Origin: an uncultured Pseudomonadota bacterium
GTDB taxonomy: Bacteria > Pseudomonadota > Alphaproteobacteria > Micropepsales > Micropepsaceae
Direction: 5' to 3'
NCBI GenBank assembly: GCA_963710925.1
Contig: CAVQBY010000001.1
Span: 162,871-226,870, forward strand
DNA length: 64,000 nt
The notes beneath the pieces were generated by a model. The model was not told the origin of the DNA, searched no databases, and was given only the letters and a program-made list of their open reading frames with translations. Positions 2,920 through 34,443 of this stretch are shown here, one piece after another (the first letter of the stretch is position 1; every line of letters begins with the position of its first letter). The position numbers were made by a program, and so were the translations under genes.

Positions 2920-3849
2920 TTACGGCGTCGACGGACTTCCCAGGCGGTCGGCCATCGCCTTGATTTCCTCGCGCACGATCTGGGGGCGCTGCATCGGCAG
3001 GAAATGGCCGATATGCTTGAGCGCGACCACATGGGTGTCCGGCTTGCGCTGCACGAAGGCCTGCGCTTCGGCGGGCCGGCAGGTCGAGCCCGGTCCCAGG
3101 CCATGGATCAGCGTCACCGGGCAGGTGAGGCGCCGGGCCAGGCGGTAGATGCCCGTCGGCGTCGAGGCGAAATTCTCGGATTCGATGCGCGGCGCACAGG
3201 CCAGCTGCACCCGCCCGTCGGCGCGCAGCACCGCGCCGCCGGCCACATAGTCGTGCAGGATGGCGTCGGGCCAGCGGCTGAACACGCCGCGGCCGTGATA
3301 GGACTGCTCCATCTCGTCGGTGGAGTCGAACACGTCGCGGCGGCGCGCGGCGCGCGCGGCCAGGTCCGGACCCAGCGCGCCGCGAAAGTTGCGCAGGCGC
3401 CGCAGCAGCGGCGCCAGTGGCGGCACGAAGACCGGCTCGACCAGCACCAGCGCGCGCACCAGCTCGGGCCGCGCCGCCGCCACCATCAGGCTGGCGATGG
3501 CGCCCATGGAATGGCCCGCCAGCAGCGCCGGCCCGCCACCCAGCCGTTCCAGCAGCGCGATCAGGTCGTCGCGATAGACCGTCCAGCCGGCGGCAAATCC
3601 CGGCGGCGCCGGCAGCCGCGACAGGCCGTGTCCGCGCGCGTCGCTGGCCAGAATGCGAAACCGTCCCGCCAGCGGCTGCAGCAGGCGTTGATAGGTCTGC
3701 GCATTGAAGCCGTTGGCATGGGCGAAATGCAGCGTCCCGCCCTTGTTTTCGCGGCCGCCGCCATCCCATTCCAGATAGCTCGCCTCGCCATCGGCAAGGC
3801 TCAGCCACTTGCGTTCGGGCGCAATCGTCGGGGGCCGGGGCTGCTGCAT
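2920..3849 (-). CDS. Alpha/beta hydrolase
   Basis: HFAHANGF, GHSMGA nucleophile, GHFLPMQ (3' part of ORF 2920..5547). Confidence 0.88.
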   Translation of the reverse strand: MQQPRPPTIAPERKWLSLADGEASYLEWDGGGRENKGGTLHFAHANGFNAQTYQRLLQPLAGRFRILASDARGHGLSRLPAPPGFAAGWTVYRDDLIALLERLGGGPALLAGHSMGAIASLMVAAARPELVRALVLVEPVFVPPLAPLLRRLRNFRGALGPDLAARAARRRDVFDSTDEMEQSYHGRGVFSRWPDAILHDYVAGGAVLRADGRVQLACAPRIESENFASTPTGIYRLARRLTCPVTLIHGLGPGSTCRPAEAQAFVQRKPDTHVVALKHIGHFLPMQRPQIVREEIKAMADRLGSPSTP

Positions 3850-16077: not shown

Positions 16078-16292
16078 ATGAGCGAACCTGTCGTCTGCCG
16101 CGATCCTGATGTCATGGGCGGTGCGCCCGTGTTCTGCGGCACGCGCGTGCCGGTGCAGACGCTGCTCGACTATCTTGAAGCCGGCGACACCATCGCCGAA
16201 TTCCTGGGTGGCTTCCCATCCGTGACGCGCGAACAGGTCATCGCCTTTCTCCGAAGAGGGCGAAGGACCGGCTCGTCGCCTCCGTCGCGTGA
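16078..16292 (+). CDS. DUF433 family antitoxin (3' frameshift)
   Basis: DPDVMGGAPVFCGTRVPVQTLLDYLEAGDTIAEFLGGFPSVTREQV; TGA at 16290-16292 overlaps the next GTG. Confidence 0.9.
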
Positions 16293-16342
16293 AAATCTTT
16301 CTCGACGAATGCGCGGACTGGCGCCTGTCGCGCGATCTGGCG
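16289..16342 (+). pseudogene. N-terminal stub of a DUF5615 PIN-like toxin
   Basis: GTGA overlap with DUF433; reads MKIFLDECADWRLSRDLA, then similarity ends at the stop codon of the convergent island gene. Confidence 0.75.
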
Positions 16343-17123
16343 TTACTTCTTTTTCAGGACGGACGATCTTGGCGTAATGCCGTCCCATAGACGAACGATC
16401 TGACGGCATGCTCCGCGGATAGCTCGGATGCGCGCGACGTGGTCTGTGGCGGGTCCGATTATTTCTCCGAGGCGGATATCTGTGACGAAACACAAGGCGC
16501 GATCAGGCAAACCAAGCGGCGGGTCTTGTTCTTCGAGGAGCATCTGGAGCAGCGCGACGAGATAGTGCCCCATTTCGCGCCGGTGATCGCCGCGCCGGCG
16601 CCGTGTCTCTTCGAGTTGCACGCGTCGGGGTCAGGTGCTTTTGCAACTCTGATGATGCCAGCACCGATCCGTCCGCGCGGACCATCCCTCAGCACGTCGG
16701 GGCGAACCGATACGGTCACGCCTTCGATGTCGAGGTCATCAAATTTGCCCGGGCTTCGAAGGGCCATTGAGCGCATTCCAATAGCGTTCTCACATCGCTG
16801 GAAGAGTTCGATGGCTTCCCGGCAACGCCTCGCCTCGTCCCGCCCCCTTGGGGTGAGTTGGACGTCTTCCGACTTGTCGGTTAATGCGGCCTTAACCCGC
16901 TCCAGTGCCGACTGGTCCCGATGCGATCCGCGTTGTAGGCACGGAGGGCGCGCATCGCGTCTGCGTTGGCCGTGACGATCGACGGCTGGGAGTAGCGGCA
17001 ATCGTGCAGAATTGCTTCCTGCCGATCAGGCTGCAAGATGAGGTATTCGGCCAGAGCTGTCGCGGAAACCCTTGGTTTCCGCCGCTCGCGCACGGAAGGA
17101 TGAAGGACAGGGGAAGCGGACAT
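16343..17123 (-). CDS. Hypothetical protein of about 260 aa, possible PD-(D/E)xK-like fold (two frameshifts)
   Basis: Join of ORFs 16881..17153, 16459..17001 and 16343..16621: KPRVSATALAEYL...LDIEGVTVSVRPDVL...RIGAGIIRVAK...LCFVTDIRLG...ACRQIVRLWDGI. Confidence 0.7.
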
Positions 17124-17380
17124 GGAAGCGGACCTTTCGATCACATTGGACAATCACCGGACGTTATGGCTGACAGAAATATCTCGGGCGGCCTATGAAG
17201 AGCAGGCGCTCGAGGGGCTCGGAAGCGACGGCGGGATATTCGTCGTGCTCGAGGACACGTCCGCCGGAAAGTACGAGGTCTTGGGTGAAGGCCGCTTCAG
17301 CATGCGCGGGAGAGGTCCTCTTGGATCTCTTCGCGGGCGCATTTTTTAAGAGCGTACCGGCGCTCAGCCTCGTGAAATAA
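17122..17380 (+). CDS. Small hypothetical protein of about 85 aa (frameshift near 17285)
   Basis: MEADLSITLDNHRTLWLTEIS...GIFVVLED...YEVL joined to KAASACAGEVLLDLF...; purine-rich RBS. Confidence 0.6.
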
Positions 17381-17395
17381 ATGTTGGTCGAGGCC

Positions 17396-17446
17396 TAACT
17401 CATTGAAACGAATCGTCGTTTTTGTTTTTTCGAGATGAATGACTTA
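17396..17446. repeat. Imperfect inverted repeat downstream of the tRNA-like gene
   Basis: TAACTCATTGA ... TGAATGACTTA (9/11 complementary) around a T-rich spacer. Confidence 0.5.
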
Positions 17447-17459
17447 CTGGCTTGACATT

Positions 17460-17556
17460 TGGCGTGCCCAAGGCGAGACTCGAACTCGCACGGATGTGTT
17501 CCCAACTATCCGCCCTGCTGTAAACAGGGTGTGTCTACCGGTTCCACCACTCGGGC
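17460..17556 (-). tRNA. Atypical class II tRNA: Leu-type body, UAC (Val) anticodon
   Basis: GCCCGAG TG GTGGAACCGGTAGACAC A CCCTG TTTACAG CAGGG C GGATAGTTGGGAACACATCC GT GCGAG TTCGAGT CTCGC CTTGGGC A CGCCA; acceptor, D, anticodon and T stems all pair. Confidence 0.85.
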
Positions 17557-17606
17557 CCAAGGCGCCGCCGCTCGTCGGCGGCGTTCTTGTTTTTCGGCCA
17601 ACCCCG

Positions 17607-18024
17607 TCAAGGGGGACCGTCTATGAAACTCCCGTCGTCGAGTTGGTAGCGGCCGTAGCCGATCTTCCGGAGGACGCGCCGCGAGGCTGTGCTCCCGCTA
17701 AGGTAGGTGAGGGCGTTGTATACGCTCTTCTTATCTGTCGGCACGCCTCGCTTATCCAGCGCTTCCAGGACTTCACTGGCGGTCCATTCCGGCCGGCGGT
17801 CATCTTTGAAAGGATCTCACGACATTCGTGAGCGCCGTGCCGCCGCGCAGTGGCGCCTTAGGCTCAACGGATTGCCGGTACAGTTGGACTAGCGCTGCTT
17901 GGCGCTTCGCAGGCGGCAGGCCAAGGAGCGCGGTTCGCATCATTTTGACTACGAGCGCCACCTCCGGATCCTCCGAGGCGGGGACCGGTTCATTTTGCGT
18001 AGAATTTTGCGTAAACAGCCTCAT
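17607..18024 (-). CDS. Winged helix-turn-helix protein (frameshift near 17810)
   Basis: ORF 17800..18024 continues in a frame missing from the ORF track: KDDRRPEWTASEVLEALDKRGVPTDKKSVYNALTYLSGSTASRRVLRKIGYGRYQLDDGSFIDGPP*. Confidence 0.7.
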
Positions 18025-18030
18025 GCGACA

Positions 18031-18071
18031 GTCTTAACGCAGTCTGATCAAGCACGCAAGGCCAGACTGCG
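18031..18071 (-). promoter_or_regulatory. Sigma70-like promoter and palindromic operator for the wHTH gene
   Basis: TTGCGT-N17-TAAGAC ending 6 nt before the ATG; perfect 9-bp inverted repeat CGCAGTCTG (18038-46) / CAGACTGCG (18063-71). Confidence 0.6.
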
Positions 18072-18396
18072 CCACAACAACCGCAAAGGTAGCAGGCGGA
18101 ATATATGGTGTTATCTCAACGAAATCCGTCACAAATTCTAGCGCACGTGCGAACCTCGGAGATTAAGTGTGTGTTCAGACTTTGAATAACCGATTTTGAA
18201 GCGCCCTGTGCATACTCTGTGTACAGAATAGAAAAATTCATTCAGAACAGTGAATTATGGGCGATCAAGTTGAGCTCCCTGATGCGCGGAGACGTTTCAG
18301 TTTGAAAAAACTGATTCGCTTCACTATCACGGTTTGCATTCCCTCCCCCCCTTGAACTCCCCCTCCCCACACCCCATTTCCGGGTGTTGAGGATAG

Positions 18397-18411
18397 GAAC
18401 AAAAGGAGTAC
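18397..18411 (+). promoter_or_regulatory. Candidate alphaproteobacterial LexA (SOS) box
   Basis: GAAC-AAAAGGA-GTAC (GAAC-N7-GTAC) overlapping the RBS of the 18414 ORF. Confidence 0.65.
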
Positions 18412-18413
18412 AT

Positions 18414-19058
18414 ATGCACCGCCCCGATCCCCTGCTGGACCGCGAACCAACTGAATCCAAAGGATATTCCGATCCCTTCCGCTTTCCCGGCTTCGACGAC
18501 ATCGACGAGCCCGACAAGCACCTGCCGGACTTCGTCGAGTGCCGGCGGCGGCGCGGCGCGCCGGCGGCGCCCGAGCCCGCGTCCGTGCCCGAGACCGACG
18601 AGGCCGCCGCCGCCCGGCTGGCCCGCTGGGCGGAGATCACCCGCGCGGAAACCGCCGCCCATGGCGGGCTCATGCCCCTGGTCGAGGATGTGCCGCCGCC
18701 GGCGGGCGGCTGGACCCAGATCCCGCTCAAAGAGCCCATGGGCCCGCCCGCGCCGCCCGCGGCGAAAGCCGCGAACTCCCCGGATGCGGCCGAGGCCGAG
18801 CTGACCGGCGTCATCGCCGATTGCCGCATGCTGATGCGCGAGGTGGCAATGGCCTCGGCGCGGCTGACCTGCGGCCCGGACGAGCGGCTGCGTTTCATCA
18901 ATTCGGCCTGCCGCGCCGCGCACGCCGCCGCCGCGGCCGGCAAGATGGTCGCCAAGCTGCGCGCGGCCAGCGCCGGGGCCATGGAGGAGAACCGCCAGCG
19001 CATCATCGTCGAGCGGGTCGAGCGCGGTCCCGCCGCCGTCTCCGGCGGCGCCGGCTAG
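18414..19058 (+). CDS. Hypothetical protein
   Basis: AAAGGAG RBS; Pro/acidic N-half and helical C-half; host-like codon usage. Confidence 0.65.
   Translation: MHRPDPLLDREPTESKGYSDPFRFPGFDDIDEPDKHLPDFVECRRRRGAPAAPEPASVPETDEAAAARLARWAEITRAETAAHGGLMPLVEDVPPPAGGWTQIPLKEPMGPPAPPAAKAANSPDAAEAELTGVIADCRMLMREVAMASARLTCGPDERLRFINSACRAAHAAAAAGKMVAKLRAASAGAMEENRQRIIVERVERGPAAVSGGAG

Positions 19059-33032: not shown

Positions 33033-34443
<1,411 letters not shown>

Follow-up and report, generated by a model that had tools for sequence, protein, structure and literature searches.

The window analysed here is a stretch of 64,000 nucleotides from an uncultured Micropepsaceae bacterium (GCA_963710925.1; a 3.4-Mb assembly of 9 contigs, rated 61% complete, with the window on contig C1 and a gene content that suggests an alphaproteobacterium). 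Within it lies a block of about 2 kb (16343..~18347) whose GC content, 0.577 over 16343-18347, compares with 0.66 ± 0.025 for 2-kb windows of the genome and is matched by only the lowest 1% of them, as expected from the AT-richer block reported in the initial annotation. The view that the block is foreign DNA is supported. Read along the minus strand, it carries a winged helix-turn-helix (wHTH) gene, a GC hairpin, a tRNA gene and an 81-nt spacer, followed by two head-to-head protein genes that we call B and A. The initial annotation had taken these parts for one compact toxin-antitoxin or defence cassette with the tRNA as a working component. Our analysis points elsewhere: the block is probably the cargo of an IS1-family transposon, minus the transposase and the A-side end, and joins two separable cassettes, the A/B pair and a wHTH-hairpin-tRNA unit.

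Gene A (16343..17123, minus strand) encodes about 259 residues and corresponds to the frame of about 260 residues proposed earlier. It is spread over three frames, with frameshifts near 16923 and 16615, and its pieces align to residues 1-66 (83% identity), 69-170 (62%) and 148-259 (59%) of an intact relative. The middle piece retrieved 38 relatives at 52-67% identity, and a profile of the family reached 668 representatives at E ≤ 0.001. Per genome the gene is scarce (6 of 228 genomes of the genus, 5 of 400 of the class), and neither plasmids nor viral contigs gave a match. The model of an A homologue (predicted local distance difference test score, pLDDT, 90.7) resembles the nuclease domains of AdnA, Dna2, RecE and Cas4 (Foldseek E 5e-5 to AdnA; VIA Z 10.9, root-mean-square deviation (rmsd) 5.0, 226 aligned residues). 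This predicted structure contains the PD-(D/E)XK core fold, in keeping with the nuclease-fold-like protein suspected at first. The acidic residue (D/E) of motif II is present in 59 of 68 family members and the lysine of motif III in 53 of 68, whereas the usual acid of (D/E)xK is not kept: two positions before the lysine the five commonest residues are L, F, M, V and I, which account for 59 of 68. The E/D of an ExxxY helix that follows the motif III lysine is found in 52 of 68 members, and a helix acid of this kind may replace the missing motif III acid, as in some restriction enzymes. Gene A is thus predicted to have a RecB/Cas4-type nuclease fold with a degenerate motif III. The likeness to RecB, AdnA, Cas4 and RecE exonuclease domains extends over the whole length of the predicted fold (Z 9-11, rmsd 4-5 Å), with the motif II acid and the lysine mostly kept; in contrast to those domains, A lacks the acid two residues before the lysine, shows no four-cysteine cluster motif in the alignment, stands alone and is tied to B. 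A QxxIL-like stretch, a candidate clamp-binding motif that is predicted to be helical, has its glutamine in 35 of 35 members of the close clade and is not kept in distant members, where the count is 18 of 68.

Gene B (17122..17380, plus strand, about 85 residues), the small divergent frame of the initial annotation, lies in two frames with a frameshift near 17290 and proved to be a conserved partner of A. Of 20 GTDB loci, 17 have B beside A, and the other three lack the 5' part of A (contig edge or fragment), so that B is present in 17 of 17 close loci with that part; among distant loci the figure is 8 of 9. Some of the loci counted also went into the B profile, and the C-terminal A remnants L002 and L103 were excluded from these counts. 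Counting the window, 21 of 27 loci have the two start codons overlapping in a single CATG palindrome, and the overlap persists in relatives at only about 25% protein identity. Because of this overlap, each gene's ribosome site and promoter would lie inside the other gene. A and B are a conserved, tightly linked gene pair, and share with type II toxin-antitoxin systems the arrangement of two tightly linked genes. Co-folding of A with B scored 0.56, against 0.00 for the best of three controls (runs sharing 4% or more of contacts, partner pLDDT 62 or higher), and one of the three runs gave 0.00. Of the reference pairs, 116 of 157 solved ones and 2 of 215 mismatched ones attained the mark, but only 18 of the solved pairs, and both of the mismatched ones, did so at 0.60 or under; the modelling is a weak indication that B may bind A. 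The model of a B homologue (pLDDT 87.3) found no clear match in a fold search (best Z 5.6); PADLOC, NCBIfam, Pfam and PDB sequence searches returned no family for B, and the Atlas returned unnamed clusters only.

A named pair for comparison is SocAB of Caulobacter, in which, according to the sections consulted of PMC9690074 and PMC8832971, SocB is a clamp-binding toxin with a Panacea antitoxin. The sizes are similar, and one Atlas look-alike cluster of A (score 0.92) carries the SocB family PF26318 on 24% of its members, which we treat as a lead only. Unlike SocAB, the pair is divergent rather than co-transcribed, and B homologues gave no Panacea match, the single Panacea gene of the genome lying on another contig.

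The wHTH gene (17607..18024, minus strand, about 140 residues) occupies two frames with a frameshift near 17810 and is likely leaderless. A search with a single piece found no match; a family defined with the homologues in loci L012 and L014 has 73 members, and both window pieces match it (E 4e-9 and 3e-3). No match was found in viral contigs. Family members resemble AbiEi-type N-terminal wHTH autorepressors in weak AbiEi_4-type and PADLOC AbiEi matches and in a palindrome over the promoter; they differ in that the matches are below cut-off, the protein has about 140 residues and an AbiEii partner was not seen. The palindrome (18038..18071), operator-like, has perfect 9-bp arms around a 16-nt spacer, lies over the presumed wHTH promoter and was matched in 0 of 300 shuffles; palindromes of at least 6 bp, differing in sequence, precede 4 of 5 homologous wHTH genes. 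Of the promoter/operator claimed at first, an operator-like palindrome is present, while no sigma-70 consensus promoter was found upstream of the gene, where a -10-like hexamer is visible by eye 6-7 nt before the ATG. Autoregulation of the wHTH gene at this candidate operator is plausible.

Downstream, a GC hairpin with a T-run (17561..17585) scores as a plus-strand terminator, which would halt read-through from the B side and has no U-run in the wHTH-to-tRNA direction. Like hairpins precede the corresponding RNA slot in L014, L151, L152, L154, L189, L192 and L199 (by eye). The 81-nt spacer beyond the tRNA gene contains an imperfect inverted repeat (9/11, 17396..17446); hairpin and repeat had both been noted correctly before. 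Beside A/B, the wHTH gene occurs in 2 of 29 other loci (L012, L014), with small ORFs and no tRNA in the slot after it; in 3 of 228 genus genomes it occurs without A/B or a tRNA within 1.5 kb, a conserved non-coding motif following the hairpin. In L151, L152 and L154 an apparently structured, conserved non-coding motif of about 190 nt lies some 60-260 nt past the wHTH stop, in the slot held by the tRNA in the window (no Rfam match in L151), and in L152 and L154 it is followed by what looks by eye like a HipA-like kinase gene.

In relatives, A/B are often the terminal cargo of IS1-family transposons. Among the A loci, 5 of the 20 close ones and 4 of the 9 distant ones contain an IS1-family transposase; it scores 32 bits on PF03400 (cut-off 24.1) and 61 bits on the NCBIfam IS1 model, under the cut-off of 100. 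Five loci (L137, L138, L139, L145 and L026) show the order transposase, B (convergent), A, with the transposase gene ending directly before the B stop, and an IS1-end-like repeat was seen by eye past the A stop in 10 of 20 loci and in L145, with 11-20 of 20 bases matching the L008 form. A second layout is found in L189, L192 and L199, where a gene, a GC hairpin, a tRNA, 110-135 nt and the transposase follow one another, two of the genes ending in a wHTH-like domain. The 81-nt spacer of the window is the place where relatives have the transposase promoter and gene (L189, L192, L199, L137, L138, L139, L145), and the window order wHTH, hairpin, tRNA, 81 nt, B, A reads as these two known layouts joined at the transposase place. 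The relatives thus share with IS1-family elements with passenger genes a PF03400 DDE transposase, IS1-like ends, variable cargo and A/B at the end; the window differs in having neither a transposase nor clear ends. The initial annotation had remarked on the missing integrase, which the IS1 context, overlooked there, would explain. Elsewhere among these elements, the regulator slot of L010, L011 and L017, between B and the transposase promoter, is taken by a gene that is unrelated, runs convergently with B and has some 250-280 codons; in L019 (4900-5600) an IS1595-like transposase (by eye) adjoins B in place of IS1; and in L166-L200 most of the distant IS1 transposases seem to be leaderless, a TTGAC promoter sitting some 35 nt upstream of the ATG.

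The position of A, often the last gene before the element end, would also suit a role for A and B as accessory factors of IS1 in end processing, target choice or control of transposition, with A acting on element DNA as a nuclease either active or dead. The exonuclease-type fold, as in Cas4 and RecE, and the retention of the motif II acid, the lysine and the ExxxY-helix E/D in most members agree with this. However, only 8 of the 99 transposase loci were found to contain A/B, which shows that the element can do without them, and they persist where no transposase is seen; we consider such a role unlikely.

IS1 elements also carry tRNA-like genes. The 99 transposase loci comprise the best matches to one transposase, the A loci and viral contigs, and do not list every place where such elements occur; the census covers the 94 with at least 400 nt upstream, and a weak antisense ARAGORN call in L203 was dropped. 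Loci L098 and L107 and, as a precaution, L017 are treated as resting on a genome flagged unpublished (G241). Locus L017, which supplied the transposase query, counts once in each of the A, CATG, end-repeat, tRNA and census tallies. Among the 28 loci whose transposase is at least 55% identical to that of L017, 21 have a Gln-like tRNA body with the anticodon UAC before the transposase, including L108 (1293-1372), L110, L115-L118, L137, L163-L165, L010 and L011. This RNA forms the 5' leader of the transposase gene and often has an 8-nt loop; some copies start near the promoter and end about 20 nt before the ATG. In 16 aligned IS1-leader RNAs the UAC is invariant, the acceptor and T-stems covary and the anticodon stem is bulged; 92.5% of cells in the cloverleaf are paired and 11 of 21 pairs are double-changed, with all slid controls lower. 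Plasmids gave no match to the leader. Among 66 distant transposase loci, 3 have Rfam-supported irregular tRNAs (32-65 bits); irregular tRNAs lie at L189:2736-2812, L192:1385-1460 and L199:2783-2858, and in L199 (Rfam 64.7 bits) the Ser anticodon GCU sits on a body that looks Arg-like by eye. Another compact tRNA-like RNA with TTACC in its loop, missed by ARAGORN and recognised by eye, lies upstream of IS1 transposases in L141 (~3700-3780) and L162 (2854-2929). Transposases look enriched in GUA, which makes up 6-8 of their 23-29 Val codons compared with 1 of 63 in addA, but this was put down to low GC and not used. In the literature within our search, which left out most subscription papers, neither tRNA-like genes in IS1 leaders nor the A/B pair were found described.

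A UAC tRNA-like gene of a different body from that of the window lies directly upstream of the transposase in 3 of the 20 close A loci and in 2 of the 9 distant ones. Across all 29 other A loci the wHTH gene was found in 2, a tRNA-like gene in 5 and both together in none, and so the co-occurrence check proposed with the initial annotation upheld the pairing of A with B and, in part, the tRNA-like neighbour, whereas the wHTH gene was rarely present and never with a tRNA. The proposal of a fixed four-part toxin-antitoxin or defence cassette, with the tRNA serving as antitoxin, decoy or substitute for tRNA cut by A, could appeal to the packing of all four parts into 2 kb, to the UAC gene within about 1.5 kb of A/B in those 5 loci, to the wHTH gene near A/B in 2 of 29 and, indirectly, to four contigs apparently shared by the A and wHTH match lists. 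Since all four parts recur in 0 of 29 loci, 24 of 29 A loci have no such RNA in the DNA examined, most UAC RNAs sit in elements without A/B and the closest folds of A act on DNA, this proposal is very unlikely, and the tRNA is probably not an antitoxin of A.

The tRNA gene of the window (17464..17556, minus strand), recognised as complete from the start, was called Val(TAC) by ARAGORN and scores 45.8 bits on Rfam RF00005 (E 1.6e-7). Its body is a type II body of the Leu kind, with a 7-bp acceptor and a 5-bp T-stem (7/5), a 22-nt variable arm, A73, a 3-4-bp D-stem with a large Leu-type D-loop, and a perfect 5-bp anticodon stem with a 7-nt loop; all stems pair, CCA is not encoded directly after A73, and the folding z-score of -1.13 is not significant. 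Its four top host matches are the four tRNA-Leu genes. In the portion consulted of PMC9976931, the bacterial tRNA-Leu determinants are A73 and a large variable region, with no anticodon base, and the main tRNA-Val determinants include A35, C36 and A73. The gene carries both of these sets and departs from the Val determinants G3-C70 and U4-A69, having C3-G70 and C4-G69. The kinship to allo-tRNAs implied at first was not borne out. As defined in the parts consulted of PMC5389517 and PMC7609411, these have an 8/4 or 9/3 branch, a D-arm tetraloop and mostly G73 or U73, and the 7/5 branch, the Leu-type D-arm without a tetraloop and A73 rule out the window tRNA, UAC anticodon and all, as one of them. 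The long variable arm, the mismatch of anticodon and body, the soil origin and the toxin-antitoxin neighbours are shared with the allo-tRNAs of PMC5389517, one copy of which, in the text consulted, overlaps a transposon-related ORF; irregular tRNAs in the supplements of that paper may include the type found here. The assembly contains no normal Val(UAC), Leu(UAG) or Asp tRNA, which shows nothing in an incomplete assembly.

A Leu body with a Val anticodon invites the explanation that the tRNA is an element-borne missense suppressor which is charged by leucyl-tRNA synthetase and inserts Leu at the Val codons GUA and GUG, acting as a mild toxin or blocking the translation of phage proteins. The Leu determinants just listed, the well-formed anticodon arm, the similar pairing of an Arg-like body with a Ser anticodon in L199 and the miscoding of allo-tRNAs in E. 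coli (reported in the part consulted of PMC5389517) would fit. However, the main Val determinants are carried as well, CCA is not encoded in place, the UAC RNAs of IS1 leaders, with bulged stems and often 8-nt loops, would be poor decoders, and the tRNA is a single uncorroborated copy; we find the suppressor account doubtful. The 7-nt loop is also the exact reverse complement of the host tRNA-Tyr anticodon loop, so the RNA could in principle contact that loop as a sensor or sponge; but the ordinary tRNA-Val loop of the genus has 6 of 7 of the same bases and many IS1-leader loops break the match, leaving this highly improbable.

The feature under selection is most likely the UAC loop, because an unrelated body keeps UAC in 16 of 16 aligned IS1-leader RNAs. 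We give a little short of an even chance to the tRNA being a tRNA-Val mimic that serves the element as a synthetase substrate or as a decoy for anticodon-cutting toxins. Ranked behind it, a Leu-for-Val mistranslator is possible on a more tentative footing; a mere processing signal and a decaying relic are each quite improbable.

Several results weigh against the transposon-cargo reading and the Val mimic attached to it. As to the element, 15 of 20 close A loci have no visible IS1 transposase (several are short contigs), none was found in the genome of the window with these queries (integrases were not searched for), and no IS1-end-like repeat follows A in the window. A weak IS1-end-like sequence (18288..18307, plus strand, score 15.9) lies near the right border, facing away from the block, but 18 genome sites score at least 14 as an IS1 end and this one ties with a chance match in a coding region at 33043. 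With neither a transposase nor a convincing end in the window, the IS1 origin therefore rests on the relatives. Five loci of the census come from one genome (G109) and are kin rather than independent, and the loci are best hits to one transposase; the wHTH family was not found in the 99 transposase loci examined. As to the pair, A has no family in Pfam, NCBIfam, PADLOC or PDB sequence searches, and A and B are divergent, not a co-transcribed operon as in usual type II pairs. As to the tRNA, among 229 genus genomes its exact type turned up once, in the window itself, and its loop is close to the ordinary tRNA-Val loop noted above. A search with the Leu-body UAC pattern gave 62 metagenome and 9 viral matches, mostly intron-bearing tRNA-Leu(UAA) by eye, and none of the 71 lies near A, B, wHTH or IS1, A having been probed with the distant L004 member only. 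On the IS1-leader model R1, where members score 72-99 bits and ordinary tRNAs 27-49, the tRNA reaches 15.9 bits; falling below ordinary host tRNAs, it does not belong to the leader family, and its UAC could agree with theirs by chance.

The window copy might also be dead, debris of decayed elements brought together by chance, in which the frameshifts are real and the tRNA is a tRNA-Leu that has drifted or was mis-sequenced. Four frameshifts fall in three cassette genes (two in A, one each in B and wHTH), the transposase and ends are missing, and lone Leu-body TAC tRNAs without cassette context occur in metagenome contigs (L034, L058, L082 and L085; 4 ARAGORN calls in 62 loci). Against this, two independent contigs do not have the additional bases that the window shows at 16252 and 16258 within the adjoining DUF433 gene, and on that account the frameshifts of the cassette, in an assembly of the quality given above, are probably long-read errors. 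The aligned gene pieces, at 59-83% identity to intact relatives, contain no in-frame stop, and every tRNA stem pairs. A dead copy is thus unlikely. No read or contig gave independent coverage of the tRNA, B or wHTH, and A was covered only in a short patch.

Under the favoured reading of the block as transposon cargo, A/B would act as a toxin-antidote-like maintenance module in which A, the effector, targets DNA or the machinery of replication and is held in check by B, with expression of the two coupled through their overlapping antisense 5' ends. The wHTH protein would repress its own leaderless promoter at the palindrome, and its transcript would run through the hairpin into the tRNA gene, from which host enzymes may excise the tRNA. 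A bolder extension, which we put forward as doubtful, holds that soil alphaproteobacterial IS1 transposons carry an arsenal of tRNA bodies, captured and given foreign anticodons, of which two or more unrelated ones have converged on UAC, and that these RNAs manipulate host translation as decoys, mistranslators or processing switches of the transposase message, with A/B as a new toxin-antidote class of nuclease-fold effectors controlled via overlapping antisense start codons. Since allo-tRNAs were reported, the part played by irregular tRNA genes has been open; these results link such genes to a defined class of mobile element and offer for bench testing a covarying RNA family with an invariant anticodon. 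They also bring out A/B, with its conserved start-codon overlap, as an unnamed and widespread gene pair; a natural Leu-for-Val tRNA, if true, would be a rare case of element-borne miscoding.

The borders of the block were placed by comparison with soil-metagenome contigs. On the left, one contig tracks the window up to 16342, where the stop codon of A adjoins a stub, and then goes on as an intact PIN-like frame; on the right, a second soil contig departs from the window left of 18348. A DNA search of the block in 40 relatives gave a single 71-base match, a remnant of gene A beside tRNA-Gln. No contig bridges an empty site, and none could be read from genomes because peptidase and trxA are not neighbours in the 4 relatives that have both. 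The left flank holds a DUF433 antitoxin-like host gene (16079..16292, plus strand; Pfam PF04255, E 3e-17) with the two probable assembly indels described above, followed by the 5' stub of a PIN-like toxin gene (16289..16342, plus strand) cut at the border. The truncated PIN neighbour reported initially is confirmed as a truncation by the continuing frame of the relative; the stub has no Pfam match, and we take it to be PIN-like from its position after DUF433 and from a motif. To the right, a hypothetical gene (18384-19058) has upstream of its start a possible alphaproteobacterial LexA box, GAAC-N7-GTAC.

Three further observations concern tRNA genes. A partial tRNA (L014:6267-6325; Rfam 29.1 bits, 3' part) lies downstream of A and is possibly an attachment-site remnant. 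A Tyr-Gly-Trp tRNA cluster occurs both at the end of C1 and on C9, the C9 copy having indels, which is probably assembly redundancy. The C-terminal A remnant L002:1463-1899 has its end some 65 nt away from a host tRNA-Gln(CUG), and the IS1-leader RNAs are similar to the D-arm of this tRNA.

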